Shown here: piece after piece, positions 18,910 through 59,177 of the stretch | Numbering within the stretch: the stretch's first letter is position 1 | Layout: every line of letters begins with the position of its first letter | Assembly: GCA_963777605.1 (NCBI GenBank) | Contig: CAVZRV010000013.1 | Span: 32,001 to 96,000, forward strand | Source of the DNA: an uncultured Acidobacteriota bacterium | GTDB lineage: Bacteria > Acidobacteriota > UBA6911 > RPQK01 > JAPXNP01 | Reading direction: 5' to 3' | Length of the DNA stretch: 64,000 nt | Program-made: the position numbers and the translations under genes | Notes under the pieces: model-generated | What the model saw: the letters and a program-made list of their open reading frames with translations, nothing else | The model's database searches: none | What the model was told of the DNA's origin: nothing

Positions 18910-18923
18910 GGTGTCGCCAATTC

Positions 18924-20932: not shown

Positions 20933-20942
20933 TGGTTCTTCC

Positions 20943-22061
20943 TCAGACGAGGTGCTGGTGCGTTCTGCTCAGGAGCGGCTGCAGGGAGGTCCCTCGAGTG
21001 CAGGGGACTACGCAGTCTTCGCAGTCAACGCAGGGAGCGGCGTTTCCGGCGAGCTGCCGGTAGTTCTCACGAGCCAGTGAGTTGTCCCGATACCCCTCCA
21101 TGTACATCGAGCACCGCCTGACTTCGGTGACCTCGACACCGTGCGGGCAGAGTCCGTTACAGGATCCGCATCCGCTGCAGTGCAGGTCTGCCGTCGCCTC
21201 GACATAGCGATCCAGTTCCCGCTCCTCCCACAAGGCGAGTTTCTGGCCCATGACGGTGAGGTTGGCGTCGAGCTGCTGAAAATCGCGGGTTCCGGGCACG
21301 GCGCAGGAGATGTTCTTGTTTTCCAGTACCCATTTCAGGGCGGCCTGGTGCGGGGTCAGTCCTCCTTGAGGATTCGGAAAATCGCCCAGTTGAGTCTTCA
21401 TCGCGGTGATGCCGATTCCGGCAGCCGCAGCTTTCTCGATGGCGGCCAGTAGACGCGGGTTTGAAGCGGAGTAGTTGAACTTAACCAAAACCGTGTCATA
21501 GACGCCGGCATCGAACACGCTCTCGAGGGTTTCGGCCATGTTGGAATGAGAGCTGACACCGATGAAGCGGGTCTTTCCCTCCTTCTTCGCCTTTTGCAGT
21601 GCCGCAATCGATTCCTCGTTAAAGACCTGGTCGCGGCTGCTCAGGCCGTGAGCAAAGAGGTTGTCCACGTAGTCGGTCTGGAGCCGCTTGAGGCTGATGT
21701 CCAGGTTGTCCAGCATCTCCTTCGTGGTGCCCTGATGGATCTTCGTTGAGATGTAGACCTTGTTGCGGCGCCCCTTCATGGCCCGACCGACCTCGGCTTC
21801 GTTCTTTCCGCCTTTGTACCCGTGGGCCGTATCGAACCAGTTGATGCCCATGTCACCCGCTTTGGCGATGACTTCTTCCGGAGCGACCATGCAACCGAGG
21901 GATACGGTTGTGATCTTCATGCCGGTCTTTCCAAGGGTGCGATAGGTGAGCTGGGGCTGTCCCCCCTGGCTCGCCCGAATAACGGGGGCTGCTACGCCGA
22001 GAGCAATCGCGGCCGGGCCCATTTTCAGGATTTGTCTTCGCGTATGGTTCTTGTTGAACAT
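20943..22061 (-). CDS. Aldo/keto reductase with C-terminal 4Fe-4S dicluster and Tat-like signal
   Basis: TRRQILK, YRTLGKTG, FDTAHGY, SLKRLQTDYVD; CSGCGSCNGLCP and CVDCEDCVVPC. Confidence 0.9.
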   Translation of the reverse strand: MFNKNHTRRQILKMGPAAIALGVAAPVIRASQGGQPQLTYRTLGKTGMKITTVSLGCMVAPEEVIAKAGDMGINWFDTAHGYKGGKNEAEVGRAMKGRRNKVYISTKIHQGTTKEMLDNLDISLKRLQTDYVDNLFAHGLSSRDQVFNEESIAALQKAKKEGKTRFIGVSSHSNMAETLESVFDAGVYDTVLVKFNYSASNPRLLAAIEKAAAAGIGITAMKTQLGDFPNPQGGLTPHQAALKWVLENKNISCAVPGTRDFQQLDANLTVMGQKLALWEERELDRYVEATADLHCSGCGSCNGLCPHGVEVTEVRRCSMYMEGYRDNSLARENYRQLAGNAAPCVDCEDCVVPCTRGTSLQPLLSRTHQHLV

Positions 22062-33987: not shown

Positions 33988-34163
33988 ACGGTCGAACGGG
34001 CCGAGCTGTTCAACTTGTCTGATCGTTCCGACCGGGTCCTTTTCGCGGGCGATCCCTTCGAATACACTAGCCTTGTGCCCGGCGTGGAGTATTGCGCCGG
34101 GCGGGTTAGCGCTGGCGCCGCCGATTGGGGTCGGCATTTCAAGAATTGGAGGGATGCCACTGC

Positions 34164-36654
34164 ATGGCACGAGAGGGAACGCTTTTCTTCACCGATTCGG
34201 TCCGGCGGGCCGGTTATTCGCTGAGTAACCAGTTTGCCGAGCACATGGAGTTCTCGCTCGTCAAGACCCGGAAAACGGCGACCGAGTATGATTTCTACCA
34301 GGCGCTTTCACTGGCGGTGAAAGATCGTCTGATCCGCAAATGGCTGCGGACCCAGCACCACTACGTGGAGCAGGACTCCAAGCAGGTCTACTACCTTTCA
34401 CTCGAATTCCTGATGGGGCGGCTGCTCGGCAACACGCTGATCAACATGGAGTTTTACGATCAGTGCCGGGAGATTCTGCTCAAGGACGGCATCAACCTGG
34501 AAGAGATCATGGAACTCGAGTACGACATGGCCCTCGGCAACGGCGGGTTGGGTCGACTGGCGGCCTGCTACCTGGATTCGATGGCGACCATCGGGATTCC
34601 CGCCTGCGGCTATGGAATTCGCTATGAATACGGGATTTTTCGCCAGGAATTGCGCAACGGCTACCAGGTCGAGCAGCCCGACAACTGGCTCAGCTTTGGG
34701 AACCCCTGGGAAACGCTGCGGCGCGACATTACCTACCGGGTCCACTTTCACGGCCGTCTCGAGCCCCAGGGCGGGCCGGCCGGGTTGGCAACCCGATGGG
34801 TTGAGACCGAAGATGTCCTGGCGGTGGCCTACGACGTCCCGGTTCCGGGGTACCGGACCGAAACCGTGAACAACCTCCGGCTCTGGCAGGCCAAGTCAAC
34901 CAACGATTTCAGTTTCAGTGAGTTCGACCGGGGCAATTACCTGGCTGCCGTGGAAGACAAGAATCGCTCGGAGAACATTTCCAAGGTCCTCTATCCGAAT
35001 GACTCATCGGCCCAGGGAAAGATCCTGCGCCTGAAACAGGAATACTTTTTCGTTTCTGCTTCACTTCAGGATATTATTAGTAACTACCTGTTAAAAAAAG
35101 ATTCTTTTGATGATTTTCCGGAGAAGATTTTCATTCAGCTCAACGATACCCACCCGGTCATCGCGATCCCGGAGTTGATGCGGTTGCTCATCGATGAACA
35201 CGGGCTGGACTGGGACCGGGCCTGGTCCATTAGCCGGCGGTGCTTCGGGTACACCAACCACACTGTGGTTCCCGAGGCCCTGGAAGAGTGGCCGGTGGAG
35301 GTGCTGGAAAGCCTGGTTCCGCGTCACCTGCAGATCATCTACGAGATCAATTCCCGATTTTCTGGCTTCGGTACGCCGAAGTCGAGCGGCGAATGAACGG
35401 GAGATCGCCGAACTTTCGATCATTCGGGAGTTTCCCGAAAAGACGGTTCGCATGGCCAATCTGGCAGTCGTGACCAGCACTGCCGTCAACGGCGTGGCTT
35501 CGTTGCACACCGAGATCCTGAAAACCCGGATCTTCCCCCTTTTCGACCGTCTCTTCCCGGGGAAGATTCAGAGCATCACCAACGGGATCACTCCCCGGCG
35601 CTGGCTCAAGGTCGCCAACCCGTTTCTGTCCAGTCTGATCACCGAGACGATTGGCGACGGGTGGGTCACCAACCTGGAAGAACTGAGGAAGCTGGAGCCT
35701 TTTGCCGAGGACGAGGCCTTTCGGGAGGCCTGGGCGAATGTCAAGACGGCCCAAAAACTTCTCCTCAAGCGGGAGATCGAGCGAGAGTCGGATCTTCGGG
35801 TGAAAGTGGATTCACTGTTCGATTCCCAGGTGAAGCGGTTCCACCTGTACAAGCGCCAGTTGCTCAATGCCCTGCACATGATCACTCTGTACAACAGGAT
35901 TCGGCGGGACCCCGGGGAAAACCATCTGCCGCGCACGATTGTCGTGGGGGGCAAGGCGGCCCCGGCCTATGTCGAGGCCAAGCTGGTCATCAAGTTGATC
36001 AATTCCATCGCGGACGTGGTCAACCGGGATCCGGCGGTCAAAGGGTTGTTGCAGATCGTGTTCATGCCCAACTACTCGGTTGCGCTGGCCGAGAAGATCA
36101 TTCCTGCGACCGAGTTGTCGGAGCAGATTTCGACCGCAGGATACGAAGCTTCCGGTACGGGAAACATGAAGCTTGCGCTCAACGGGGCGCTCACCATCGG
36201 GACCTTGGACGGCGCGAACATTGAGATCATGGACGAAGTCGGCCGGGAGAACATGTTCATTTTCGGGCTCAACGCGGACGAAGTTGCCCGTCGCCACCAG
36301 GGAGGGTACCGGCCGCGCGATTTTTACGAGCAGGACGCTGAACTTCGTGAAGTCATCGACATGATTGAGGGCGGCTACTTCAATCCCGATGAGCCGGGTA
36401 TCTTCGGAATTCTCGTGCAGGAACTTCTTGAACGTGATTTCTTTTGTTTGCTGGCAGATTACTCGGCATATATTAAGGCTCAACTCGAAGTAGAATCGGT
36501 CTATCGCAATAGCCACGAGTGGACTCGCAGGTCAATTCTCAATGTCGCTCGAATCGGTCGATTCTCAAGTGACCGTTCGATCGCGGAGTACAACCGGCAG
36601 ATCTGGCGGGTGGAACCGGTCGCGATTTCCGAGGAGCGGTTCGGATCAATCTGA
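34164..36654 (+). CDS. glgP: Glycogen phosphorylase (+1 frameshift near 35360)
   Basis: YYLSLEFLMGR, ALGNGGLGRLAAC, QLNDTHP, EASGTGNMK and GTLDGANIEI motifs. Confidence 0.95.
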
Positions 36655-43766: not shown

Positions 43767-45020
43767 TCACGGCTTCCAGGGGCTGATTTGCCCGCTTTCC
43801 ATCTCCACCATGGTTACCGGGCGCGTGTTTTGACCGGTCAGGTCCCAGACGATCGGTCCGGCCGCCCCGGACCAAGAGAATTTGGCCCGCAGCGTGTCTC
43901 CAATCCGGGCCCGGTTGGCACCGGCTTCTCGCACGGCTTCTCCCAGGAGTTCGATGGCGTCGTAGGTCTGGGCGGCAGCGAAGTCCGCGGGGTGTCCGGT
44001 TTCTGACCGGAAACGCTTCGAAAACTCTTCCAGGGCTCCAAGGTCGGCCGGGAGGGGGAATATGAAGCGGTTGGACAGCCCCGCCGCCGCTTCGTGGAAG
44101 GATCGGCGGCCCATCGCCGAAGAGCCGTAAACAGGTCCGGAATAGATCGGCGCCAGGTGGCGCGCAACCTGCGCCGAAACCTGCGGATCCGCCAGGATCA
44201 CCAGGGTGGGCCGGACCGAGCCGGCGAGGAGTTGACGATTGAGGTTGGAGAGTTCGGTCTCGTCGCCTGTGGTGACGTTCAGGTGGTAGTGAAGCGCGCT
44301 CTCCCGCTTCGAGAGCGCTTCGAGGAATTCAGTCGTCACGGCGCGGGAGTCATGGTCGGTGGCGGAGATCAGGACGATGGTGTCGGTATGGCCGTTCTTC
44401 TCCAGCGTTTCGAGGAGCAACTCCATCTGGAGGTCATCGCCCGGCAGGCAGGAAAAGATCCACGGAACGTGGGCCATGTTGGCCGACCGGTCGGTCGATC
44501 CCGGGTTGAGCAGGGGCAGGCGGGCTTTGGCGACGATCTGCTCGGCCAGGTGCGCGGTAGGCCCGTCTACGCCGCCGATGATGGCCTGGATTCCGTCGTT
44601 GTAAACCATCCGCGCGATCTGCCCGACACCGCTGCCCCAGGGATTCTCCGACCACGCGGGAAGGAGTCGGAAGGGCAGCCCCCGGTAGCCGCCTCGAGCG
44701 TTGAGGTCGTCGATGGCCATTTGGGCAGCGGTCCAGGAATCACCATACAGTGGGTGATCGGGATCGGACGGCCCGAAGTAACCGATGCGGATCTCCGTAA
44801 GGCCCGGCGGGTCGATGTCATCCCGCCCGGGGCCATTGTAGTGGTGCAGGCTTGTTCGGCCGTCGAAGAACGGGCCCTCGGCCTGTCCAGCCAGAGCCGG
44901 TCGAATCAGGCAGCACAGCCCGGCCAAAACAACCAGGGCTCGGCAAATCTGGAGCCGGCTCGCCTGCCAATCGGACGGAGGGTTCGATTGGCGAACCCTC
45001 CGGCACCGGTCAGCGGTCAA
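43767..45020 (-). CDS. LivJ/ANF-receptor-type (Peripla_BP_6) substrate-binding protein
   Basis: IRIGYFGP, AIDDLNARGGYRG, AIIGGVDG, AAQTYDAI and GAAGPIVWD motifs. Confidence 0.85.
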   Translation of the reverse strand: MTADRCRRVRQSNPPSDWQASRLQICRALVVLAGLCCLIRPALAGQAEGPFFDGRTSLHHYNGPGRDDIDPPGLTEIRIGYFGPSDPDHPLYGDSWTAAQMAIDDLNARGGYRGLPFRLLPAWSENPWGSGVGQIARMVYNDGIQAIIGGVDGPTAHLAEQIVAKARLPLLNPGSTDRSANMAHVPWIFSCLPGDDLQMELLLETLEKNGHTDTIVLISATDHDSRAVTTEFLEALSKRESALHYHLNVTTGDETELSNLNRQLLAGSVRPTLVILADPQVSAQVARHLAPIYSGPVYGSSAMGRRSFHEAAAGLSNRFIFPLPADLGALEEFSKRFRSETGHPADFAAAQTYDAIELLGEAVREAGANRARIGDTLRAKFSWSGAAGPIVWDLTGQNTRPVTMVEMESGQISPWKP

Positions 45021-45032
45021 TGGCAGGCCGCT

Positions 45033-46497
45033 TCACGGCTGACCCGGTCCCGTTCCGGGACGATATCCTTGGGGGATATCGAGGTCTTCCCGCGTGTAGT
45101 AGTGCCAGGCGCCGTCCTTGAAGTGCGCCATGGCGACCGTCCCGACGTCATCCAGTGCCGCACTGAGGGCGATCTGCCCCGTCACGCCCGGCCATGGCTT
45201 GGACCTGTAGGCCAGCACGTCACGAACTTTGGCCCGATTCAATCCCGCCACCTGGACGGCCCAGATCAGCATATTCATTCCGTCGTAGGCGTGAGCCGCG
45301 TAAGTGTCCGCCTCGACACCGAAGCGTCTCCGGAAGATCTCCCGAAAAGCGGACAGCTTGGGATCTTTCCGGTCCGGGTTCCAGGGGTACATTGCCCAGA
45401 CTCCCTCGGCGTTCTGGCCGGCTATCTCGGTGAAAGTCGGGCGAGACGTGCCGGTCGGAGCCGAAGAACGGTTGCTTCATCCCCATCTTCCGCATCTGGT
45501 TGAGAATCATGGCCCCTTCCTGGGCATCTCCCCAGTGGACGATGGCGTCCGGATTGGTCGCCTTGAGGCGTTCCAGTTGAAGCGAGAAATCGGTGTCCCC
45601 GAGACGGTAGGCCATCTCCAGAACGACCGGCTTCTCCAGGCGCCGGCTGCCGTCCCGAACCTCGCGCACACCGAAGCGGCCGTACCGGTTGGAAGCCCGG
45701 ATGATCCCCACCCGTTGGTAGCCCATTTTTCGGTACAGGTAGTCCACCAAAAGGTAACCCATCTGCCGGTCGTCCCCGATACAGCGGAACACCCACGGGA
45801 TGTTCGTCTCGATAAAGGTCGGGTCGGTGTCGCCGGAGTTCATCATGGCAACCTCGGCCTTCAGAGCGACCCGGATCGCGATGTGGCTGTTGGCGCCGTC
45901 AATCGTGCCGAGAATCGCCCAAACCTTGTCGTTGTAAGCCATTTTGATGATCTCGTTGCCCGAGGCTCCCCACAGCCCGTTGTCGTTGGAGACGGCCAGT
46001 TCGAATGGAACCGACCGTTTCAGGTAGCCTCCCCGGGCATTGGCCTGTTCGATGGCCAGTCGGCTGCCCCGCATCATCTGGATTCCCAGGGGCTCTTCGT
46101 GGCTCTTGCCGCCGGTAGCGACCGAAACGGTGGACATTATGGGACCGATGAATCCGATCTTGACCGAATCGACATGCTCGGGTTCGGGGATCGCGCGCCC
46201 GGGTCCGGTGTACTCGATCTGAAGGAGGAAGTTCTCCTTGAAGGGTTTGACCCCGCTGAACGGTTCGACGTCGACGGCGGTTCCGGCGTAGTTCTCGTCC
46301 CGCTTCAGGTCAATTGGAGGAGTTTCATAGGCAGTGATGTTGTTGAGGATTTCCAGGACCTTGGCCACGGCCGGATCATCCACCGCGAAAGGAGGCAGGA
46401 GTTCATCCGGGGGCAGAATGTCCGGTCGTTTTGTCGCCTGGGCAAAGAGCCCGGACACGGTCAGGATGACGAAGAATACTCTGCAGACCAGTTTCAT
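45033..46497 (-). CDS. LivJ/ANF-receptor-type substrate-binding protein (+1 frameshift near 45434)
   Basis: Signal peptide; VKIGFIGP, AIEQANARGGY and TDFSLQL motifs. AAHAYDGMN and GVTGQI lie in the shifted frame. Confidence 0.85.
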
Positions 46498-46503
46498 GGC
46501 TAG

Positions 46504-47754
46504 TTACCTCCTCGCACTCGCCGGCCGGGCAGGAGATGTCGCTGCGGTCGGGGTCGTGGCGGCTGCGTCGGAGCCCTCCGGTTTGAGCCCGGCAAAGTAG
46601 TTCGTTCCGATCCCGTGGGCCAGGCCTTTCGACGTTCCGATCCAGACATCAGAACCGTCGAAATCTACTGCAAGCGTGTAGTTGTGGGGAATTCCGGTGG
46701 CGGTCTCAACCTCCTTCAGTACCTGTTTGTTGCGGGATACGATCGCCTTTCCCTTGTGGGTTTCCGGGTCCATCGTATAGGTGACCCACGTATCGGTATC
46801 AAAGTCGGTCACGGTCCCCACGCCCTTGTCGGTACAGAACCAGGCCTCCTGGGCGCTCCGCCCTTTGACGGCATTGATGAAGTCACTGGGAAGCCCGGTT
46901 TCCTGGTTGTAATAACCGCGCCAGTGTCGTCCGTCGTAGCGGCATCCCCCGAAGTAGGTCGAAACCCAGAGGATCTTGTCCACGTAGCTGACTCCGGTCG
47001 TGATGACGTGGACAATCCCGTCATCGCGATAGAGGTCGATCTCCATCTCACCGTCCGGGTCGAGGTAGTCTTTCCAGGTCCCGCGCGCGATGTCGTATTC
47101 GAGTACACCGCTTCCCCAGACACCGAGGTAGACAAGGCCGTCGTTGTAGGTGACACCGTAGTTCCAGATCTCCTCCATGGGCGCATTCTTCTCTGTAAAA
47201 ATGGCCCATTCGCCGGTAACGGTGTTGAATCGGCTCGCACCCGCGGTAGTCGCACACCAGACATTGTCGTGCTCGACGGCGACCCCGTAGACGACGTCGT
47301 TGACCAGTCCGCTGTTCAACTGGTGCCAGTGATCGAACCGGCCGGCGGTATAGCGCGCCAGGCCGCCGCCGAACAGGGCCAGCCAGACCTCCCCGGTCTT
47401 TGGGTTGACGGCGATCCAGGAGACCACCTTCCAGGGGAGACCATCCTCCATCGTCCAGGTCCGCTTGACCTTGCCGGCGACCTTGTCGATGAGGGCCAGG
47501 CCGTTCTCCGTGCCGACCCAAACGTCGTTGCCGTTGACGGTGACGGCGAAAATGTGGTCGTTTGGCAGCCCATCCTTGACCGTGAACTGCTGCCAGTCCC
47601 GGTAGATGTACGGCAGCGGTTCCTGCTCAGCCGCGGGCGGAACCAGCGCGGATTCAGCGAACGGCAGGGCCGGGATCGTAAACAGTATCGCCAGGACTGT
47701 CAGCAGAAAACGCGGGCATTCCTTGATGCTGACTGGGAATGATTGTCTGCTCAT
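46504..47754 (-). CDS. Secreted beta-propeller (two-component regulator propeller repeats, no kinase)
   Basis: DGLPNDHIFAV, VWVGTENGL, SGLVNDVVY, GLPSDFIN and VWIGTSKGL repeats; signal peptide. Confidence 0.85.
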   Translation of the reverse strand: MSRQSFPVSIKECPRFLLTVLAILFTIPALPFAESALVPPAAEQEPLPYIYRDWQQFTVKDGLPNDHIFAVTVNGNDVWVGTENGLALIDKVAGKVKRTWTMEDGLPWKVVSWIAVNPKTGEVWLALFGGGLARYTAGRFDHWHQLNSGLVNDVVYGVAVEHDNVWCATTAGASRFNTVTGEWAIFTEKNAPMEEIWNYGVTYNDGLVYLGVWGSGVLEYDIARGTWKDYLDPDGEMEIDLYRDDGIVHVITTGVSYVDKILWVSTYFGGCRYDGRHWRGYYNQETGLPSDFINAVKGRSAQEAWFCTDKGVGTVTDFDTDTWVTYTMDPETHKGKAIVSRNKQVLKEVETATGIPHNYTLAVDFDGSDVWIGTSKGLAHGIGTNYFAGLKPEGSDAAATTPTAATSPARPASARR

Positions 47755-47782
47755 AATTGAGTCCTCACCGATTCTTCTCGGA

Positions 47783-50635
47783 TCAGAACGTCTTGATGTA
47801 CTCAATCAGATCGTTCAGTTGATCCTTGGTCAGATCGTTCGTCACCCCATGCTTATCCTGGGGGTTGTGCACGGTCCAGATCTCCTCCAGCGTGGGTGCG
47901 ATCCCGTTGTGAAGGTAAGGCGCTGAGTCATAGATGTTGTTCAGATGGGGAACGTCAAAGAGCGCTTCCCGATCATAGGGCATCCGGGTTCCGACATCCA
48001 CCTGGGTTCGGTTCGTGTAGAGCGGAGGTGGATGACAGAAGACACACTGTCCGGTCTTGGGAATTTCCCGGCCGTCGCTGGTCATCGATCGCTCGAAGAC
48101 GGACTTGCCTCGTCGCTGGGCGGGAGTGAGTTCGGCTCCCAGAGGACGATAGCGGTTTGGTGGCCGCTGAATCATGGAAATGTAGAGATCCAATGCGGCC
48201 AGTTCGTCCGGGCTAAAAGGCTGGATTCGGGTGAAGAAGACAGCCAGGCGGGGACCGCATTGCCGCTGCAGGCTTGGGTTGGTACCTTCCCACTTGAACG
48301 GGGCGGTGTCCAGAATCCCGCGAAGCGTCCGGTTGTCCACGGGGCTCACGCCCACTCCATCCGGTTCGATGTCGTAAGTGACTCCGTCAACGTGGCCGTC
48401 CGGGTGGCAGGAGTGGCAGGAGAATTGGCGTCGGAAGGTGATTTTGGCATTGTGAAAGAGCTGTTCTCCCAAGCGTGCCTTGGTGATCTGCCTGGGTCCG
48501 CCAAGGTCCACGACTCCAGCTGGCTCGAGTCGCTTCATGTCGATAACCGTGAGGGAATCGTCCAGGCAATTGGCGACGAAAGCAGTGCTGCCGTCCGGCG
48601 TCACCCGAATTCCCCGCGGGCTCTTCCCGGTCGGGATCAGCTTCGCAATGAACTCGGTGGGCAGGCCCAGGTGATTGGGCAGAACGTTCTTGCGCTCTTC
48701 ATCGGATGCCGACTTGAGGATGCCGACCAGTTTGTTGAGATCGACCACCGCCACCCGGTCGAGGCTCGCGCTGGTCACCAGGGCATACTTTCCGTCCGGC
48801 GTGATCGTCAGGCCGGTGGGGTCGGGAAACGAGATGTCGGTCTGGTCGAGCAAGACCTGGTCCACGTGCCCGTCCTTCCAGGCGATCCCGATGCCGTTGG
48901 TGATGGTCCAGCCCTGGGTCAGCCTGGTCATGGGCACCAGGTTCTTGGTTCGGAGCATTACGAAGACGGCGTATTCCCCGCTCGGATGCCAGTCTACGCC
49001 GAGCAGGAGGTTCGTTCCCCGGGCGGTGTAGCGGTCGTCCACCTTCTCGGTCTTGGTATTGACCACGGTCAGTTCCGAGACACAGGGAGTCCGGAAGGGG
49101 ATAAACCGGGACAGGGCATTGGTCACGACGATCTGGCTGCCGTCGGGAGACAGGGACATCGCCCAGGGATACCGGCTTGCCGTCAGCCGGGACTTCTCGG
49201 TCAGTGAATCGCCATCCAGGATCGAGATGCTGTCCTCAGAGGAGTTGAGAACGTAAACGTCCCGGCCCATGCCGTCCATCTGGACGCCGTGTGGTTCGTC
49301 GCCGACGGGTACGGTGCGCAACACCTTCCGCGTCACCACATCGATCTCGCTCAAGCTGTCGTCGAGCCGGTTGGTGACGAGGACCCTCTTCCCGTCTGGG
49401 CTGAACGTCAGGTCATTGGGCTGGCCTCCGACCTGAATCTCGGCCACCTTCTGGCGCCTGGCGACATCCACAACGATGACCGAATCAGAGGTTTCGCAGG
49501 TGAGCCAGACTTCACGGCCGTTTGGAGAGACAACCAGGTTAAGAGGGTTCTTGTAGCGGATTTGCGCCACCGGTGCAGGGCGCTTTTTCGGGTGGGCGAT
49601 CGATTTCCACGCTGCTTCGTAGTCGAAGGATTTTCCGTGGGCATCGGCATGGCACTCCATGCACATGTCGCGATTGCCCAGTTTGAGGCCAGCCTCGCGG
49701 GCCGCCTCCTTGTCCAGCATGATGGCTTCGTGCTGGTAGTCGCTGCCGGGTCCATGGCACGACTCGCAGCCGACTCCCTCATCCAGGGTAAGCGACGGGA
49801 GAGCCTCGGACAGTTTTCCTCCGGTGGTGGCATGGCAGCGCAGGCACTTGGGGCTCTGTTGGGCTGGACCTTCGATCCCGGCCTGGCGAGCAATACCCTG
49901 GGCCGCCTCAGTGGCGAGGCGCCCATAGGCCTTGGCGTGCGGAGACATCTTCCAAATGCTGAATTGGTAACCCATCATGGCCGCGCGGTGGCACTGGGTG
50001 CAGGCCTGCACGCCGACGTAGTGAGGACCAGGGGTCGTTTCGTCCGCCGTCCCGGACAGGGCGGGCAGTTCCGTGAGTTCCGCCGAGTCCGGCGTCGGGT
50101 GAGCAATCCTGTTCCAGCCCTCGTCGATGTCCAGCTTGGGCAGGTTGTGGACTGCGACGTGCGATCCCTTCTCGTTGTGGCACATCTTGCAGTCGTTCTT
50201 GGTGATCTTCTTCAGCCCGGCCCGCATCGCGGCTGCGGGATCGCTCATGACCTCGGCGTCCATGTACTCGCTTCCGGGACCGTGACACTTTTCGCACTGG
50301 ACCCCGTCCTCGATGCGGAACCCGTCGTCATGTTCCCAGTCTTCGGCTTCCGCCCCGGTGGCATGGCATCCGAGACACACCGGTGACTCCTGCGGAACCT
50401 GGGGCACTCCGCTGAGGCGGGCAATTTCCAGGGCCTCCGACTTGGCCAGGACCGCGTAGGCCCGGCTGTGCTTGGTCATCAGCCACTTGCTGAACTGGTG
50501 GCCCATGGAAGGCCCGTCATGGCAGGTAGCGCAGGCCCGTGCCCCGACGTAGATGGGCTGGCGTTGCTGAGCCGCAGCGGAAACCAGAAGGCAGCTCATG
50601 CTCAGCAGGAATGGCAGCAGGGATTTGGAACGCAT
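47783..50635 (-). CDS. Decaheme protein: two c554-like tetraheme domains + YVTN/YncE beta-propeller + HzsC/CCP-like diheme domain (hydrazine synthase beta-gamma-like fusion)
   Basis: Signal peptide MRSKSLLP; 10 CxxCH motifs (CATCH, CLGCH, CEKCH, CKMCH, CTQCH, CLRCH, CESCH, CMECH, CHSCH, CVFCH); YVG..C and GVxCExCHGPGS c554 motifs; FDVPHL...APYLHNG...KHGVT..L. Confidence 0.9.
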   Translation of the reverse strand: MRSKSLLPFLLSMSCLLVSAAAQQRQPIYVGARACATCHDGPSMGHQFSKWLMTKHSRAYAVLAKSEALEIARLSGVPQVPQESPVCLGCHATGAEAEDWEHDDGFRIEDGVQCEKCHGPGSEYMDAEVMSDPAAAMRAGLKKITKNDCKMCHNEKGSHVAVHNLPKLDIDEGWNRIAHPTPDSAELTELPALSGTADETTPGPHYVGVQACTQCHRAAMMGYQFSIWKMSPHAKAYGRLATEAAQGIARQAGIEGPAQQSPKCLRCHATTGGKLSEALPSLTLDEGVGCESCHGPGSDYQHEAIMLDKEAAREAGLKLGNRDMCMECHADAHGKSFDYEAAWKSIAHPKKRPAPVAQIRYKNPLNLVVSPNGREVWLTCETSDSVIVVDVARRQKVAEIQVGGQPNDLTFSPDGKRVLVTNRLDDSLSEIDVVTRKVLRTVPVGDEPHGVQMDGMGRDVYVLNSSEDSISILDGDSLTEKSRLTASRYPWAMSLSPDGSQIVVTNALSRFIPFRTPCVSELTVVNTKTEKVDDRYTARGTNLLLGVDWHPSGEYAVFVMLRTKNLVPMTRLTQGWTITNGIGIAWKDGHVDQVLLDQTDISFPDPTGLTITPDGKYALVTSASLDRVAVVDLNKLVGILKSASDEERKNVLPNHLGLPTEFIAKLIPTGKSPRGIRVTPDGSTAFVANCLDDSLTVIDMKRLEPAGVVDLGGPRQITKARLGEQLFHNAKITFRRQFSCHSCHPDGHVDGVTYDIEPDGVGVSPVDNRTLRGILDTAPFKWEGTNPSLQRQCGPRLAVFFTRIQPFSPDELAALDLYISMIQRPPNRYRPLGAELTPAQRRGKSVFERSMTSDGREIPKTGQCVFCHPPPLYTNRTQVDVGTRMPYDREALFDVPHLNNIYDSAPYLHNGIAPTLEEIWTVHNPQDKHGVTNDLTKDQLNDLIEYIKTF

Positions 50636-50651: not shown

Positions 50652-52289
50652 TCAGTTGGCGCCTTGAATGATTTTGAGAACCTGGTTGGCCGGGACATTC
50701 TCGAGTTTCTGGGTCTCTCCTCCCGGCCATCGAATCTCAATTGAGTCCACCTTCTGCGCTTTTCCCAGTCCGAAGTGGAGCCGGGAATCGACCTCTGAGA
50801 GGTATCCCCGGACGGGTTGAACGTTTTCGATTTGTCGCAGCGAATCAACCTGGACGGTGACCCGCGCGCCCAGAGCATCCCGCTCGGGGCCGGGGAGCTT
50901 CGGGACGACCTTAATCCAGTTGTTCTCGTTGCCACCGTCGTTGCGCAGCAACTTGGCGCGATCGTTCAGGTTGACGATCACCAAGTCGAGATCCCCGTCG
51001 TTGTCAAAATCGCCGAAGGTGGATCCCCGTCCAACCATTTTTACCCTGAAATAGTCTCCGGAGCGGTCGGAAACATCGTTGAAAACACCGGTGCCGTCGT
51101 TGTGAAGCAGCACATCCTCCTCGGTGTACTCGTGGTGAGCGTTGCCGTTGGAGACAAAGAGGTCGAGGTAGCCGTCATTGTCGTAGTCCACCAGGAGACC
51201 GCCCCAGCCGGTGTACTGACCGCAGGTGATGGCGACCTTGGAGCGGGTGGTCTGGTCTTCGAAGAACTCTCCCTGGTTCATTAGGAGACTGCTGTAGCCC
51301 ATGTCGGGGACGTAGATGTCCAGCAGTTGATTGCGGTCGATATCGCCCGGAAAGGGGCCCATCGAGGAAACGCCCTGTCCATGTTCGCCGAACGCCAAAC
51401 CCAGGAAGAGTCCCTTTTCGACGAAGGTCCCCTTTCCGGTGTTCTCGAAGTAGTAGTTTTCGGTGGCATCGTTGGCGACGTAGATGTCCATGTAGCCATC
51501 GCCGTTGAGATCGGCGGCGGTGGCACTCATGGCACGCCCGTTGTCCTTGAATACGCCTGCCTCACGGGCGACGTTAGTGAACGTGCCGTCGCCGTTGTTC
51601 CGATAGAGCGCATCGCTCTCGGCGCTGTAGCTCAGGGGGCCAGGGTAGCCGGCCGCGGCGTAGTAGGCCCGGAACTTTCCGTCATCGTAACGCAGGTAGT
51701 TGGCCACGTAGACGTCGAGGTCACCGTCATTGTCGTAATCGAGCCAGGGAGCGGAAAGGCTCCAGTTGGGGTCGGCCAGGCCCGCCTCTTTCGCAACGTC
51801 GGTAAACGTGCCGTCGCCGTTGTTCCGGTAGAGGACGTTCGAGCCGTAGTTCAAAACGTAGATGTCCACGTCCCCGTCGGCGTCGAAATCGACGGCGGAG
51901 CAGCCGAAGCTGGGACTTGGATCGCCAACCCCTGCCGAGTCGGTGACATCGGTGAAGGTGCCGTCCCCGTTGTTTCGGTAGAGATGGTTGAAGAGCTTTC
52001 CGCGCAGCTTCCGGCCACGGTTGTCGCTGATGGATTTGTCCCAGGAACCGTTCGGGAAGTAGAGGTCGAACCAGCCGTCGTTGTTGTAGTCGAGGAAGCA
52101 TGCCCCGGCACCGGTCCCCTCAACGATGTTGGTCAGGTCGAAATCGCCGAAGCTGTGTTTGAAGTCAATTCCCGCAGAGTCGGTGACGTCCACAAAAACC
52201 GGCAGGTTCGCCGGGTTCTGGGCCTGTCCCAGCGATCCGGCAATCGCCAGCGCGAACAAGAATAGGCATGGTCGGCGAAAGCACCTCAT
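50652..52289 (-). CDS. CRTAC1-family protein (FG-GAP/VCBS repeats + ASPIC/UnbV)
   Basis: FVDVTDSAGI, DYNNDGWFDLY, LYRNNGDGTFTDV repeats and GYLS..DSRLHFGLG...IRWPGG. Confidence 0.92.
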   Translation of the reverse strand: MRCFRRPCLFLFALAIAGSLGQAQNPANLPVFVDVTDSAGIDFKHSFGDFDLTNIVEGTGAGACFLDYNNDGWFDLYFPNGSWDKSISDNRGRKLRGKLFNHLYRNNGDGTFTDVTDSAGVGDPSPSFGCSAVDFDADGDVDIYVLNYGSNVLYRNNGDGTFTDVAKEAGLADPNWSLSAPWLDYDNDGDLDVYVANYLRYDDGKFRAYYAAAGYPGPLSYSAESDALYRNNGDGTFTNVAREAGVFKDNGRAMSATAADLNGDGYMDIYVANDATENYYFENTGKGTFVEKGLFLGLAFGEHGQGVSSMGPFPGDIDRNQLLDIYVPDMGYSSLLMNQGEFFEDQTTRSKVAITCGQYTGWGGLLVDYDNDGYLDLFVSNGNAHHEYTEEDVLLHNDGTGVFNDVSDRSGDYFRVKMVGRGSTFGDFDNDGDLDLVIVNLNDRAKLLRNDGGNENNWIKVVPKLPGPERDALGARVTVQVDSLRQIENVQPVRGYLSEVDSRLHFGLGKAQKVDSIEIRWPGGETQKLENVPANQVLKIIQGAN

Positions 52290-54205
52290 TCATCCCCTCC
52301 TGAAAGTCTCTTCTGCTCCATCTCAACTGCGTTCTGCACCCGGGATCCGCCATGAGCACCCAGATCGATCCACTCAATCATCACCTGGGCGTGTGCCGGT
52401 TGCACCAGCGGTTTCCCCATATTGGGCGGGCCCTCGTTCTGATTCGGCACTGTCCCGTCCCAGGGAAGAGTAGTGATTTTGCCCAGGATGTGCCAGACCA
52501 GGGGACTGGTTCGGGCCCGGCCCGGGTCGATCCAGCGTTTTTCCCCGCCTTCCGAACCCGGGTTTCCGCCATTCAATCGCGCGTAAATTCTTGCGACATA
52601 CCCACTGGAATCCGTCCGGCCGTCGGGAGGACGGAAGTCCGCCCCCGAAGTTCCCCCGGAATGGCATGACTCGGTCGTGCATCCCTTCTGGATAACCGGA
52701 AGGACATCCCGCTGGAAATCGACATAGCGGCGCAGGTGGGCGGGCGCGGTCAGCCGGACGGGAGGCTTCTTCACCGCATCGACAAACCGGTTGTCCGGGA
52801 CCAGTTCTCCGTCTTCGTGGCAGCCGATGCATCCACGAGGTTCCTTGTTCCTGGCCCAGATCCAGCCGCAACTCTTGAGGGACATCCCCTTGTCGTCAAT
52901 GAGTTGCAGCTGGACCGGCGTGTTGGCCGGCACCTCGAAGAAGACGGAGCCGTCGGCTTCCAGGGGAACCTCACCGAGGATACGTTTGGGAATCATCGAA
53001 TCCCTGGATTCGGAATGAGCCGGCAGGCCCTCGAGGACGCGCACGCGCCTGGCGAGGGACTGCAGTTGTGTCCCATTCTTCAGATCGTTGATGCCGACGT
53101 TGAGGCAGTAGAACTGCCCGAAGGGATGGTTCTCGTTGACCACGCTGGAGCGGCCGTCGGGTTGGGGGCGAGCTTTGACTAGGCGCCCGTAAAGCAGGTT
53201 GCTGGATGAACTGGACAGCCAGGGCGTGAAGGTCCCGCTTTCCGGGTCCAGTTTCACGACTTCGAAACGTGAAGAGCCGGCCGAGGCTTTCCGGGAAACC
53301 AGGATCGAACCGTCCGGAAGCGGGGCGGGGGAGTAGAAAATCCCCTCTGCCGGCCCGGTGAGTCTTCGATAGGTGTGCATCGGGCGCCGAAGCGAGACCG
53401 AGCCCAGGGTTCCCCCGATGGCCCCCGCGTCGAGAGCCGATTCGACGAACACGGCCAGGTCATGGGTCGTCACCGTGGGCATTTGCTGGACCGGCGATCC
53501 CTGCAAGCCGGAAAAGGCGACCAGGTCGGTGCCGTCAACGTTCATGTTGAAGATCCGGGTCTGGCCGGCATCGCTTGCAGCAGTCCCGGCCCGCCGGCTC
53601 GAGAAGAGGATGCGACCGTCCCAACAAAGGAAGGGATCTTCGTCGGAGGACGGGTTATAGGTGATCCGCTTGATCTCGCTCCCGTCGAGTTGGCAGGAAT
53701 AAAGGTTGAGGGCTTTGCCGGTGCCCCGCTCGTTGTACTCACCTGCCGCGTCACTGACAAAGAGGATCTGAAGCCACGGCTCGTTCGCCGTGATGATGTA
53801 GTAGGCTGACAGGTAGATCGGAGAGCGACAGTTTCCGGAGTCGCGGGTGACCTGCCGGGTCTTTCCCGAATCAATCTCGTACTCGAAAATGTTCCAGGGT
53901 TCGCCGGCTGAGGGCCTTCCGGAAAAAAGGATCCGCTTCCCGTCGTAGGAGACGTCAGGTTCGCAGGCGCTCTCGAAACCCTTGCTGACGGCAACCGTTC
54001 GGCCGTCCGGATAGCGCAGTACTAAGCGGGCCCCGTCACAGACCTCGGAACGCTGAACTTTTGCCGGGGAGACGGAAGGCGGAAGCGCTCGTGCTTCCAC
54101 CAGGACGGTTGGTTCGGGGGGGGCGGGGGATTGCGCCCAGACCAACCCCGACACTCCGAAAACGATGAGAGAGAAAGAGAGGAGACCTCGCATTTCACGA
54201 GTCAT
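52286..54205 (-). CDS. Hydrazine synthase alpha subunit-like protein (TolB-like propeller + HZS_alpha middle domain + heme c)
   Basis: EPDVSYDGKRILFS propeller; ILGEVPLEADGSVFFEVPANTPVQLQLIDDKGMS...WIWARNKEPRGCIGCHE; second motif CTTESCH; EWIDLGA end. Confidence 0.85.
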   Translation of the reverse strand: MTREMRGLLSFSLIVFGVSGLVWAQSPAPPEPTVLVEARALPPSVSPAKVQRSEVCDGARLVLRYPDGRTVAVSKGFESACEPDVSYDGKRILFSGRPSAGEPWNIFEYEIDSGKTRQVTRDSGNCRSPIYLSAYYIITANEPWLQILFVSDAAGEYNERGTGKALNLYSCQLDGSEIKRITYNPSSDEDPFLCWDGRILFSSRRAGTAASDAGQTRIFNMNVDGTDLVAFSGLQGSPVQQMPTVTTHDLAVFVESALDAGAIGGTLGSVSLRRPMHTYRRLTGPAEGIFYSPAPLPDGSILVSRKASAGSSRFEVVKLDPESGTFTPWLSSSSSNLLYGRLVKARPQPDGRSSVVNENHPFGQFYCLNVGINDLKNGTQLQSLARRVRVLEGLPAHSESRDSMIPKRILGEVPLEADGSVFFEVPANTPVQLQLIDDKGMSLKSCGWIWARNKEPRGCIGCHEDGELVPDNRFVDAVKKPPVRLTAPAHLRRYVDFQRDVLPVIQKGCTTESCHSGGTSGADFRPPDGRTDSSGYVARIYARLNGGNPGSEGGEKRWIDPGRARTSPLVWHILGKITTLPWDGTVPNQNEGPPNMGKPLVQPAHAQVMIEWIDLGAHGGSRVQNAVEMEQKRLSGGDE

Positions 54206-54311
54206 ACAACAAATCCTGAATAGACTCGACCCGCCGCGTGCTCGTTGGCCATGAGAGTGAGGCACTCGGGCCGAATGACAGTGTCTCGGTCTCGGAATCG
54301 CAGAAGACGAA

Positions 54312-54899
54312 CTACTCTTCCCGCTTCAGCATCGCAATGGCCTCGATCTCGACAAGCAGATCCTCACGGCAAAGCCTGGCCTGGATTCCGACACTCGCCG
54401 GCAGAGGGCTCAGTTCGAGGTAATTGAAGAAGGCGTTTCGGACCCGGTTGAATTCTTCGTAATCGCGCTCGATATCACGCAGATAGCAGGTGCATTTCAC
54501 GATATCGCGCCAGGTTGCCCCCTGGGCGGTGAGCAGTTCGGTGATATTCCGGTAGGTACGCCAGCACTGGGCGCGAAAATTGCCTTTGTGGACCGTGTCT
54601 CCTTTTTCGTCGACACTGGCGGTTCCCGAAATGAAAATCAGGTCGTGGTTGCCCATCTCGATGCGAAGGCCGCGCGAGAAGGCCGAACCGTAGTCATACG
54701 CTTCGTTCAGGACGGTGGAGGCGGAGACCGCCTGCCGTGTGACGGACGTGAACCCCGGTTGGTGTGCGACCTCGAGCAACGGTCGAACTGAGCCAGAAGA
54801 AGAGAGCAGGCCGAGAGCGACCAATTCCTGTCTTTCACCTTTAGTCAGGTTGCCAAATCCCGCCAGAATGTCGTCGCGCACGCTCACCAATGTGCTCAT
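54312..54899 (-). CDS. Rid/YjgF-family protein (Rid7/FkbO-Hyg5-like single domain)
   Basis: SAFSRG, IFISGTASVD, YLRD, FNRVR and IQARLCREDLLVEIEAIA motifs. Confidence 0.85.
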   Translation of the reverse strand: MSTLVSVRDDILAGFGNLTKGERQELVALGLLSSSGSVRPLLEVAHQPGFTSVTRQAVSASTVLNEAYDYGSAFSRGLRIEMGNHDLIFISGTASVDEKGDTVHKGNFRAQCWRTYRNITELLTAQGATWRDIVKCTCYLRDIERDYEEFNRVRNAFFNYLELSPLPASVGIQARLCREDLLVEIEAIAMLKREE

Positions 54900-55448: not shown

Positions 55449-56078
55449 ATGCCCAAAGAGAAGAAGCCTGAGATGAGCAGCTCCGGCCTGTCCCGAAGAG
55501 ACTTCTTCAGAAGCGGCACCGTGGCCGGCATGTCGGCGGCACTGGTTTCGCAGAAGTCAGGGCTGGCCAAGAGTGAGGCGGGAACCCAGATTCTGGGCCC
55601 GGACCCGGTGCCAATCAGACTGATCGTCAATGGAAAGCAGCTCAATCTCAAGGTCGAGCCGCGGGTCACCCTGCTGGACGCATTGCGCAACGACCTGGGA
55701 ATAACCGGTGCAAAGAAGGTTTGTGACCGTGGAACGTGTGGTGCGTGCACGGTACTTCTTGACGGAAAGCCGGTTTACTCCTGCTCGGTGTTCGCGATCG
55801 AAGCGCAGGGAAAAGACATCGTCACCGTTGAGGGCCTCGGCACTCCCGACAAGATGCACCCGATACAGGAGGCGTTCGTGGATCACGACGCCCAGCAGTG
55901 CGGGTTCTGTACTTCGGGATTCGTGGTTGCCAGCAAGGCATTTCTGGACAAGAACCCGAATCCGAGCCTGGAGGATATCAACAAGGGTTTGGGCGGTAAC
56001 CTGTGCCGTTGCGGAACCTACGCCGGAATCCGCGGTGCAATCCTGCAGGCGGCTGGGAAAGGAGGAGACAATGCCTGA
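55449..56078 (+). CDS. Molybdenum hydroxylase (2Fe-2S) subunit with Tat signal (PaoA/YagT-like)
   Basis: SRRDFFR; GAKKVCDRGTCGACTV; QCGFCTSG; GNLCRCGTY. Confidence 0.93.
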   Translation: MPKEKKPEMSSSGLSRRDFFRSGTVAGMSAALVSQKSGLAKSEAGTQILGPDPVPIRLIVNGKQLNLKVEPRVTLLDALRNDLGITGAKKVCDRGTCGACTVLLDGKPVYSCSVFAIEAQGKDIVTVEGLGTPDKMHPIQEAFVDHDAQQCGFCTSGFVVASKAFLDKNPNPSLEDINKGLGGNLCRCGTYAGIRGAILQAAGKGGDNA

Positions 56079-58197
56079 TTATAAGTGGCCAGAAGCCGAT
56101 CAACGATGGCGAATCGGCCGCAACGTGTCCCGCGTGGACGGCCCCTCCAAGTCGACCGGATCGGCCGAGTACGCCTATGATGTCCGGCTCTACGGAATGC
56201 TCACCGCGAAAATGCTGACCTGCCCTTACGCTCACGCGCGGATTGTCAGCATCGACAGTTCCGCGGCCGAGAAGTTGCCGGGTGTCAAGGCTGTCAACGT
56301 GATCCAGGGGCCGGGAACGGAAATCCAGTGGGCGGGTGACGAAATCATATCAGTCGCCGCCGAGACCGAGGAGATCGCCCGGGATGCCCTCAAGCTGATC
56401 GACGTCAAATACGAGGTCCTTCCTCACCAGTTGGACGGTGAGAAGAAAGACGCCCCGGACGCCTCGGCGGCCCAGGAACAGGTGGCGGGCGATCCCGACC
56501 AGGGCATGACGAGTGCCGACAAGGTTTCGGAGGGGTACTACGGACTCGAATTGATCTCTCACTGCTGCCATGAATCGCACGGGACCGTGGCCTACTGGGA
56601 GGACGATGACCATCTCGTGGCTTATGCCTCGACCCAGGGAGTGAGCGTTCTGCCGGGTCAGTTCGCTGAAGGCCTGGGTATTCCCGCCGCCAATGCGCGC
56701 GTGATCTGTCAGAACATGGGCGGCGGATTCGGGAGTAAGTTCAGTGCCGACCGTTGGGGCATCGAGTGCGCCAAGCTCGCGCGAATGACCAAGCGGCCGG
56801 TCAAGCTCATGCTCGACCGGGATACGGACCTCCAGGTCGCCGGCGGGCGTCCATCTACATATGCCAGGATCAAGATTGGCGTGAAATCGACCGGCGAGAT
56901 CACGGCCTGGGCCTCCGAAACGTGGGGGACCGGTGGACCGAGCGGGACCAATAGTCCTCCGGTACCGTACGTGGTCGAAGTTCCCAACCGGCGGCACCAG
57001 CATACATCGGTCCCGACCAACACTGGTCCGTCCAGAGCCTGGCGGGCACCCAATCATCCCCAGGCCTGCCTGGTGACGATGGCGGCGATCGAGGATGCCG
57101 CGGCAGCGATCGGGATGGATCCGGTTGACTTCATCATGAAGAACATCCAGATGACCGAACCCCGGTCTCGGGAGTACACGGAAGAACTGCAGATCGGTGC
57201 CGAATTGATGGGCTGGAAGGAGCGCTGGAAGCCACGGGGACAGGGTGGCGACGGACCGGTCAAGCGCGGTCTGGGCGTTTCCCTGCATACTTGGGGCGGG
57301 CGCGGTCACAACAGCAACTGCGAGTTGCTGCTTCATCCCGACAGTTCCGTCGAGATCCGCCTGGGAAGCCAGGACCTCGGGACGGGAACCCGGACCGTCA
57401 TCGCGCTGGTTTGCGCGGACACCTTCGGCCTGGAAGCGAGCGACATCACCGTTCGTATTGGAGACAGTCGTTTTCCGGCTTCTGGCGCTTCCGGTGGAAG
57501 CACCACGGTCGGAGGCGTCAGTTCTACCGCACGGAGGGCGTCTCTGCTGGCTCTCGAGCAGTTGCTGACCCGGGTCGCACCGGAGTTGAACGCCCAGCCA
57601 GGCGAGTTGGAAGCGATCAATGGTCGAATCCAGGTCAAGGATTTTCCGGATCGCTACCTGACCTGGAAAGAAGCAACGTCGATGCTGGGTGTCTCGCCCA
57701 TCAGTGTTACGGGTCAGAATCCCGGCCCCGGGCGCCTGATCGACGGTGGCGTTGGCGGCATCCAGATGGCTGACGTTTCGGTCGATGTGGAAACCGGAAT
57801 CCTCAAGATCAACAAGATGGTCGCTGTCCAGGACTGCGGCCTCATCATCAACATGAAGACGGCCAAGAGCCAGGTTTACGGCGCCCTCATCATGGGAATT
57901 TCCTATTCCCTGGCCGAAGAGCGGATCATGGATCCGACGACCGGCTGGCTTCTCAACGATGACATGGAGTTCTACAAGCTGCCCGGCGTTGGAGACATCG
58001 GCGAGCTGGTCGTTCACATGATGACGGGACCGGGATACGACGAACGCGGCGTGATCGGCCTCGGTGAACCTCCGGTGATTTCTCCGGGGGCGGCGATCTC
58101 CAATGCCGTGGCCAATGCGATCGGAGTCCGGGTGCCTTACCTGCCCCTGACCTCCGATCGGATTCTCCAGGCTCTGGAGAAAGGAGGAGCAGCCTGA
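56071..58197 (+). CDS. Xanthine dehydrogenase-family molybdopterin-binding subunit
   Basis: RVDGPSKSTG, MGGGFGSK, AWRAP, QDLGTGT, SGGSTT and GLGEPP motifs. Confidence 0.93.
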   Translation: MPDYKWPEADQRWRIGRNVSRVDGPSKSTGSAEYAYDVRLYGMLTAKMLTCPYAHARIVSIDSSAAEKLPGVKAVNVIQGPGTEIQWAGDEIISVAAETEEIARDALKLIDVKYEVLPHQLDGEKKDAPDASAAQEQVAGDPDQGMTSADKVSEGYYGLELISHCCHESHGTVAYWEDDDHLVAYASTQGVSVLPGQFAEGLGIPAANARVICQNMGGGFGSKFSADRWGIECAKLARMTKRPVKLMLDRDTDLQVAGGRPSTYARIKIGVKSTGEITAWASETWGTGGPSGTNSPPVPYVVEVPNRRHQHTSVPTNTGPSRAWRAPNHPQACLVTMAAIEDAAAAIGMDPVDFIMKNIQMTEPRSREYTEELQIGAELMGWKERWKPRGQGGDGPVKRGLGVSLHTWGGRGHNSNCELLLHPDSSVEIRLGSQDLGTGTRTVIALVCADTFGLEASDITVRIGDSRFPASGASGGSTTVGGVSSTARRASLLALEQLLTRVAPELNAQPGELEAINGRIQVKDFPDRYLTWKEATSMLGVSPISVTGQNPGPGRLIDGGVGGIQMADVSVDVETGILKINKMVAVQDCGLIINMKTAKSQVYGALIMGISYSLAEERIMDPTTGWLLNDDMEFYKLPGVGDIGELVVHMMTGPGYDERGVIGLGEPPVISPGAAISNAVANAIGVRVPYLPLTSDRILQALEKGGAA

Positions 58198-59177
58198 TGA
58201 ACAAGTTCGAATATGCGAGTCCAAACACAGTCGAAAGCGCCATTCAGCTCCTCGGACCGGAAGCGGCCGTTCTGGCCGGCGGCAGTGACCTGCTGAGCCT
58301 GATGAAGGACGGGGGTGCCGCTCCCAAGCGGCTCGTCAGCATCAAGGCCATTCCGGACCTCTGCGGGATCACCGACCTCGGCAACAAGGGAATCCGCATC
58401 GGAGCCCTGGTGACGATTGACGAGTTCGTGGAACATCCCCTGATCCAGGCCAATTATCCGGCCCTGATTCAGGCCGCCGACGGTATCCGGAGCCACCAGA
58501 TTCAAAGCCTGGGAACCGTCGTGGGTGACCTCTGCCAGCGTCCCCGTTGCTGGTATTTCAGGACCGGCTTCGGTCTTCTCGCCATGAAAGACGGCAAGTC
58601 AATGGTCCTGGACGGCGATAACCGGTATCACGCGATTCTCGGGAATTCCGGGCCGGCCTACTTTGTTAGTCCTTCAACCATCGGCCCTGGGCTGATCGCT
58701 TTGGGGGCGCAGGTCGCCATTCAGGGACCCAAGGGAAGCCGGCAGACTCCGGTCGCCGATTTCTTCCGGATCCCGACTGCAGAAGGGGAGTTGGAACACG
58801 ACCTGGCTCCCGACGAAATCGTAACCGAGATCGTGATTCCTCCGGCTGCCGGCAAAAAGTCGGCAACCTATGAAGTCCGCCAGAAGGAAGCCCTGGACTG
58901 GCCGCTGACGGCCGCCGCAGTTGCTCTCGAAATGGACGGAGACACGGTCAAGGCAGCCAAAGTGGTCCTCGGACACGTGGCGCCCAAGCCCTGGGTAGCG
59001 GACGCTGCAGCTGCGGCCCTCGTTGGCAAATCGGTCAGCGAGGCGACTGCGGCCGCTGCGGGAAAGGCCGCTGTTCAGGGAGCCAAGGCACTGAGCAAGA
59101 ATGGCTACAAGATCAATCTTACTCAGGTGACCGTCAAGCGCGCTGTGCTTCGAGCGGCCGGCAAGGAGGTAGCCTAA
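58197..59177 (+). CDS. Xanthine dehydrogenase-family FAD-binding subunit (PaoB/YagS-like)
   Basis: LAGGSDLL, IRIGALVT, LCQRPRCWYFR, LGHVAPKPW and LSKNGYK motifs. Confidence 0.92.
   Translation: MNKFEYASPNTVESAIQLLGPEAAVLAGGSDLLSLMKDGGAAPKRLVSIKAIPDLCGITDLGNKGIRIGALVTIDEFVEHPLIQANYPALIQAADGIRSHQIQSLGTVVGDLCQRPRCWYFRTGFGLLAMKDGKSMVLDGDNRYHAILGNSGPAYFVSPSTIGPGLIALGAQVAIQGPKGSRQTPVADFFRIPTAEGELEHDLAPDEIVTEIVIPPAAGKKSATYEVRQKEALDWPLTAAAVALEMDGDTVKAAKVVLGHVAPKPWVADAAAAALVGKSVSEATAAAAGKAAVQGAKALSKNGYKINLTQVTVKRAVLRAAGKEVA

Follow-up and report, generated by a model that had tools for sequence, protein, structure and literature searches.

The gene at 47783-50635 on the minus strand of the DNA analysed here (64,000 nucleotides from an uncultured Acidobacteriota bacterium, hereafter the window) encodes a decaheme protein whose C-terminal diheme domain is related to the gamma chain (HzsC) of hydrazine synthase (HZS). 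By alignment, Cys793 of this protein sits at the position where HZS attaches its gamma-I heme for a third time, and the acid that HZS carries beside this heme, Asp168, has with certainty been lost from the aligned stretch. The fold, family, gene cluster and residue conservation are those of the diheme unit of the HZS homologs of clade I, the name under which Hagglund et al. 2025 (PMC12758564) describe exactly this arrangement. We base this assignment on architecture, synteny and motifs. The decaheme gene is another member of this already described group, and because the retained clade I cysteine has itself been published (Hagglund et al. 2025, PMC12758564), finding it here is not surprising. 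The best explanation of the whole appears to be a periplasmic multiheme complex of reductase type, with a third cysteine link to heme I and a distal glutamine, and we put its probability at roughly 0.55.

Residues are numbered from the ATG at 50635, the likely start of a protein of 950 amino acids with ten CxxCH motifs. This ATG is preceded by a ribosome-binding-like site (GGGAG) and lies 34 amino acids before the first CxxCH; the mode of this distance is 35 among 64 ten-heme proteins from related loci. A longer start, the GTG at 50935, was ruled out by the lengths of the homologs. The protein opens with a probable Sec signal peptide (50567-50635), judged by eye from the translation, and is probably secreted or periplasmic. 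Eight of the CxxCH motifs follow in two cytochrome c554 modules (49649-50533; Pfam PF13435 twice, E 3.8e-31; cytochrome c554 1bvb, E 1e-8). Next comes a seven-bladed beta-propeller (48503-49555) that resembles HzsB both in sequence (E 3e-37 to chain B of the Kuenenia stuttgartiensis HZS structure, 5c2v_B) and in fold (Z 48.3, root-mean-square deviation (rmsd) 1.7 over 339 residues), and the diheme domain (47783-48502) ends the protein.

The region of the original prediction (47783-48460) is the 3' end of the minus-strand open reading frame (ORF) finishing at 47783, whose translation contains every motif that had been quoted; the domain begins slightly further out, at about 48502. In a sequence search of the PDB, the gamma chain 5c2v_C was the top of 29 matches to the diheme domain (E 7.3e-21; runner-up 2.4e-7), so the match to HzsC that had been proposed is right, as is the deletion of about 10 residues. 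Two AlphaFold models, with mean confidence (pLDDT) of 93.8 and 91.7, were compared with known structures through secondary structure, scores and aligned ranges. Fold searches with the first were filled by propellers and have no bearing on the diheme domain. The second, of the diheme domain, ranks 5c2v_C first (Foldseek TM 0.82; Z 24.3 and rmsd 2.1 over 227 residues, with the next entry at Z 18.0), and matches in the ESM Atlas were to generic CCP_MauG clusters only. The relationship to HzsC is thus upheld, but not the word "close" that had been attached to it: the structural alignments give 30-36% identity, and the NCBIfam HZS models score far under their cut-offs (gamma 85 bits against 625, alpha 149 against 800, beta-gamma 202 against 1250). 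The 5c2v_C chain has 314 residues, the last being residue 353, which gives an offset of 39 to the published numbering; chain positions 126 and 129 are therefore Cys165 and Asp168, and the same offset reproduces the published Cys102 and His106. The heme I CxxCH (48404-48418) corresponds to gamma Cys102/Cys105/His106, and the heme II CxxCH lies at 48032-48046.

Cys793 (48257-48259) falls on chain position 126 after the 10-residue deletion in three HMMER runs, with a posterior for this column of at least 0.95 in pairwise alignment and of roughly 0.7 when a profile of 73 sequences was used. The claim that the third heme-attachment cysteine is kept has therefore survived the pairwise alignment, which places Cys793 at gamma Cys165 and not away from it. 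The cysteine is present in all 120 close homologs (the best 120 of 5988 matches) and in all 80 genome loci (kept from 322), within a Gln-Cys-Gly-Pro/Ala-Arg-Leu stretch; these two sets are not independent, being 74-93% identical to the query. To look further afield, we used 150 representatives at 50% identity, of which 122 cover the region and 65 carry a Lys/Arg-Trp motif. Eight of these 65 have no Gly after the Cys column and were dropped (three look frameshifted), leaving 57 rows of the subfamily beside 57 rows outside it. The column holds Cys in 48 subfamily rows, Asp in five, Glu in two, and Ala and Phe in one each; outside the subfamily, only 1/57 has Cys. The background of cysteines not belonging to a CxxCH is 0.6% in the decaheme ORF, and Cys793 is the only one of these in the diheme domain, as its equivalent is in 44/120 homologs. 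The third link in HZS reportedly goes to a methyl group of the heme, as Dietl et al. are said to have shown in 2015. Given this placement and conservation, Cys793 is probably bonded to heme I through a third thioether, the role that Cys165 has in HZS. A structural comparison in PMC12758564 infers the same link for clade I.

In HZS, the distance between Asp168 and the iron is 4.08 Å, and this residue is proposed to donate the proton (bioRxiv 2023.01.22.525020; PMC12607021). Neither Asp nor Glu occurs within the 12 residues from the glutamine onward in the window protein or in any of the 120 homologs, so the loss of this acid holds in any register. The original prediction had gone further and named Arg as the replacement, and this part is less secure. 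One residue of the pair Arg796-Leu797 (48245-48250) takes the place of Asp168, but from the Cys to the FSP motif the window protein is longer than HzsC by one residue, making the register ambiguous, and the HMMER posterior at the Arg167 and Asp168 columns is only 0.4-0.5. Of nine possible gap placements, the one right after Cys-Gly scored best, with 20 against 15 for the originally proposed register (20.1 against 14.4 when averaged over the 57 rows), and both AlphaFold models have a helix break at Gly794, where the extra residue would have to fit. The Arg is conserved in 53/57 rows, whereas its following neighbour may be F, L, T, A or I. The published alignment (PMC12758564, Fig. S7B), which we took from machine-extracted and interleaved figure text, marks C165 and D168, likewise has the gap after Cys-Gly, and keeps Arg in one column across anammox (anaerobic ammonium oxidation) and clade I-III sequences; Asp168 is marked there and goes unmentioned in the main text. 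On these alignments, we somewhat favour Leu797 as the residue at Asp168 and Arg796 as the equivalent of the conserved Arg167. A literature search on the role of gamma Arg167 gave nothing usable.

The register first proposed would leave the helix unshifted and place Arg796 above the iron, in the position held by Asp168 in HZS and by Pro107 in MauG. The resulting pocket would be cationic and suited to anions, for example nitrite or peroxide; only the distal-site step of the mechanism discussed below would change. In favour of this register, each of the three HMMER runs opens the gap behind the Asp, and an ungapped count from the Trp puts Gln792 on MauG Gln103 and Arg796, at Trp+14, on Pro107; Pro107 lies four residues past the distal Gln, just as Asp168 lies four past Val164. 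The conservation of Arg in 53/57 rows also fits, as does the next column, which is hydrophobic both within the subfamily and beyond it and resembles the residue following the CcP Pro. The low posterior, the lower substitution score and the published pairing of this Arg with Arg167, kept in anammox and clade I-III sequences alike (PMC12758564), make it the less probable of the two placements.

The rest of the heme pocket is a mixture. Trp782 (48290-48292) aligns with gamma His144 and is the inter-heme Trp of the CcP/MauG family, present in 120/120 homologs; the same substitution is seen in PMC12758564. Gln792 (48260-48262), where HZS has Val164, aligns with the Gln at position 92 of 1iqc, matching the distal Gln of Nitrosomonas europaea CcP, and stands at Trp+10, the spacing of MauG Trp93 and Gln103. 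Its column holds Gln in 42 of the 57 subfamily rows, His in one and Glu in 14 (P0132, P0140, P0143, P0146, P0170, P0171 and others); a Glu here would return an acid to the pocket, elsewhere than at Asp168. His929 (47849-47851) corresponds to gamma His332, at chain position 293 plus 39 and in the published H332 column, and is the expected sixth ligand of heme II, which should therefore be bis-His. Its pattern was matched in 118/120 homologs, and the other two were not examined. In HZS, the bis-His gamma-II heme (about -310 mV) passes electrons to gamma-I (about -30 mV), which binds nitric oxide (NO) (bioRxiv 2023.01.22.525020; PMC12607021). The distal Pro and Glu of the CcP/MauG family are absent, with Arg at Trp+14 and Thr at Trp+20; the Gln/Pro/Glu triad is conserved and required in bCcP, MauG and BthA (PMC6405878). 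Read from its residues, the pocket combines features of HZS (the Cys and the bis-His heme) with features of CcP (the Trp and the Gln) and has the acid of neither family. The "altered distal-pocket chemistry" that had been proposed is accordingly right in that the pocket differs, with the equivalent of Cys165 kept and Asp168 gone, and unproven in its exchange of Asp for Arg.

Set beside the known systems, the protein is closest to the clade I homologs, found in Syntrophobacter fumaroxidans, Paludibaculum fermentans, Thermogutta terrifontis, Novipirellula, Aquisphaera and Opitutus (PMC12758564). It shares with them the order of alpha, CRTAC1 and fused beta-gamma genes with two binding proteins downstream, the eight N-terminal hemes in two c554 domains with two further C-terminal hemes, and Cys at gamma 165, Trp at 144 and the Gln-Cys-Gly-Pro-Arg-Leu stretch (Fig. 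S7B). There is no difference of substance in the diheme domain; the window differs in the second heme site of its alpha-like protein (CX4CH) and in a frameshift in binding protein 1. Kuenenia HZS (5C2V) has the same gamma and beta folds, both CxxCH, Cys165 and His332, and also shares Asp118, an acid at 122 and a base at 143. Unlike Kuenenia HZS, the window domain lacks Asp168, the 10-residue loop and the long insertion after heme II, has Trp for His144 and Gln for Val164, is fused to a propeller and eight more hemes, and has a partner without Tyr591. The enzymes bCcP, MauG, BthA, MbnH and YhjA share the fold (Z 14-18), the inter-heme Trp (Ser in BthA) and the distal Gln at Trp+10. They differ in having the distal Pro/Glu pair and Met or Tyr, not His, on heme II, and in having neither the extra Cys nor the propeller and c554 fusion.

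We propose that the diheme domain is the C-terminal and probably catalytic unit of a periplasmic multiheme redox complex, in which Cys793 would attach heme I a third time by a thioether. Heme II, bis-His and hence of low potential, may join the eight c554-type hemes in an electron wire leading across Trp782 to heme I, and we consider this part likely. The distal site of heme I would be open and lined by Gln792 and most likely by Leu797, with Arg796 as the equivalent of Arg167, and would hold neither the Asp of HZS nor the Glu of CcP/MauG. There it might bind and reduce a small oxidised ligand, the likeliest being a nitrogen oxide (NO, nitrite or hydroxylamine). This last step is tentative and falls somewhat short of an even chance. 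Like the bond and the direction of electron flow, the substrate is inferred, in its case solely from descent of the site from that of HZS gamma. The alpha-like partner, whose heme is an ordinary one ligated by His, would make no hydrazine, and the loss of the acid used by HZS suggests that the complex probably has a different redox job.

Several observations weigh against this proposal. The HMMER gap placement and the ungapped count from the Trp favour the other register. Asp168 is proposed to supply the proton when HZS reduces NO, so its loss should also weaken the step from NO to hydroxylamine. Apart from the two binding proteins and a variable Rid-family gene, the neighbourhood holds no clue to a substrate, and we came across no biochemical work on clade I proteins. 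One or two further cysteines are present in the domain in 76/120 homologs, where a disulfide could consequently form. The cysteine could in that case be conserved without a bond to the heme, whether free, in a disulfide or as a transient ligand. This would also fit its replacement by Asp, Glu, Ala or Phe in 9/57 subfamily rows, which indicates that it is dispensable for the fold, and the absence here of the 10-residue loop that immediately precedes it in HZS. However, no partner cysteine exists in the window's own domain or in 44/120 homologs, and the residue is invariant in clade I and shares the Cys165 column in every alignment examined, so an unbonded cysteine seems unlikely to us. About equally probable, and a serious rival, is an oxidative enzyme, either a peroxide-activated catalyst of the CcP/MauG kind or a dehydrogenase exporting electrons through its c554 modules, with the third link made by the protein's own oxidative chemistry. 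The retained inter-heme Trp and distal Gln are in its favour. Cytochrome c554 of Nitrosomonas accepts electrons from hydroxylamine oxidation, which would suit an export route, and the Rid-family gene found in 21/54 loci would suit imine products. CcP uses Met on its second heme, whereas heme II has His here and neither Met nor Tyr. Heme-protein links of peroxidases do form autocatalytically with H2O2 (PMC5377774), but the distal Glu is absent in 120/120 homologs, although the triad is needed in bCcP, MauG and BthA (PMC6405878), and the MauG model scores only 21-23 bits against a cut-off of 444.

Could the complex instead be a true but divergent hydrazine synthase, and hence a sign of anammox capacity outside Brocadiia? 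Suarez et al. 2023 (PMC10732223) and a 2025 cold-seep paper (PMC11828985) have argued for such a reading of hzs-like clusters. All three subunit types are indeed present and clustered, and the protein retains Cys165, His332 and an acid at each of gamma 118 and gamma 122. Yet the scores lie far below the NCBIfam cut-offs, Asp168 is missing and Trp replaces His144. In the alpha-like protein, no Tyr equivalent to Tyr591 occurs within eight residues after the alpha-I CxxCH, either in the window or in 59/59 loci, and it is likewise missing in PMC12758564, which rejects this reading. The beta loop, in one pairwise alignment with 5c2v_B, has Arg where HZS carries Glu. A divergent hydrazine synthase is therefore very improbable, and the proposed periplasmic complex almost certainly does not make hydrazine.

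The subfamily rows with an acid at the Cys165 column (P0136, P0138, P0144, P0149, P0153, P0155 and P0193; 7/57) raise a further question. We built a maximum-likelihood tree of 46 rows. Besides the domain from the window, it contains those 45 of the 122 representatives that reach 80% coverage, have two CxxCH and carry the Lys/Arg-Trp motif; P0193 is outside it. In this tree, the Asp/Glu rows stand among Cys rows on three separate supported branches: P0144 beside P0135 and P0128; P0149 and P0153 beside P0131; and P0136, P0138 and P0155 together with the Ala row P0129. As the tree is midpoint-rooted and lacks HzsC, no anammox HzsC having been recognised among the 120 and 150 fetched proteins, it does not fix the direction of change between Cys, Asp and Glu. 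Three clade II/III rows of PMC12758564 also have Asp in this column, without comment in the main text. In enzymes of the lactoperoxidase type, Asp and Glu form ester links to heme methyls autocatalytically (PMC5377774). These peroxidases have an unrelated fold and a b-type heme, so they serve as an analogy only, but their ester-forming residues resemble the replacements seen here, which suggests an ester-type link to the heme. Taken further, the Cys165 position may be an ancient cross-linking site at the heme edge, with at least three switches between thioether and ester across the HZS-like subfamily. We regard this as a long shot, and a simpler reading is that the acid acts as a proton donor. 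The idea of an ester link did not turn up in our searches, which covered open-licence papers.

The decaheme gene lies in a conserved cluster, all on the minus strand. Upstream are the HzsA-like gene (52286-54265; PF18582), with 5c2v_A as its sole PDB match (E 1.8e-34), and a CRTAC1/FG-GAP repeat gene (50652-52289, identified by Pfam), which stands between the alpha-like and decaheme genes in the relatives too; this order is kept in 58/59 loci long enough. The second heme site of the HzsA-like protein is CX4CH in 17/59 loci and CX2CH in 38, and was not found in four; across an alignment of 52 sequences, its two Cys and its His do not vary. Downstream are a Reg_prop-type propeller protein (46504-47805; PF07494 and synteny), whose real start is probably slightly later, and two periplasmic binding proteins (Peripla_BP_6, assigned by Pfam and for the second also by synteny) at 45033-46497 and 43767-45020, an order kept in 54/60 loci. 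The first binding protein is frameshifted near 45376-45440; as a single frame is found in 67/68 related loci, this may be a sequencing error. A Rid-family gene (54312-54899; PF01042) stands at the head of the cluster as a variable member, present in 21/54 loci long enough. By record title, the loci are mostly metagenome-assembled genomes of Planctomycetota and Acidobacteriota, and all three of the nearest (87-88%) come from Acidobacteriota.

Many Planctomycetota loci (L012, L013, L014, L020-L022, L024, L025 and others) have a further CRTAC1-like match, more distant than the first, 6-10 kb downstream on the opposite strand. Two loci titled Arcobacter (L051 and L057) have a layout like that of the Acidobacteriota loci L071 and L075, and mislabelling or a binning error is likelier than a true Arcobacter cluster. 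Within the window, there are 108 ORFs of at least 150 amino acids, many of them shadow frames. None of the 44 scanned with Pfam is an HAO/HDH-type gene, although a 64-kb window is uninformative about the whole genome. A divergent operon for a xanthine-dehydrogenase-like molybdoenzyme (55449-59177, plus strand) neighbours the cluster only in L001-L003 and L005. A glycogen/carbohydrate phosphorylase (34125-36654, plus strand) is divided between two ORFs that overlap (PF00343 positions 4-296 and 295-713); this second probable frameshift suggests indel errors in the assembly. Finally, an aldo/keto reductase, DUF6599, DUF362 and a 4Fe-4S polyferredoxin stand in a row at 17392-22061 (minus strand), a redox cluster unlinked to the diheme protein.

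What do these proteins tell us? The residues checked across the 120 proteins and up to 80 loci (no Asp168, Trp at 144 and no Tyr591) favour rejecting the anammox reading of such clusters. If the third link is real here, ordinary cultured bacteria offer a gene in which to study it, and the variants with Asp or Glu would be a natural experiment on its formation. Should the idea of thioether and ester switches also prove true, the CcP/MauG fold would include a c-type heme held by an ester, and the cultured carriers of clades I-III would be a tractable model for third-link formation and for the NO-handling half-reaction that gave rise to hydrazine synthase.

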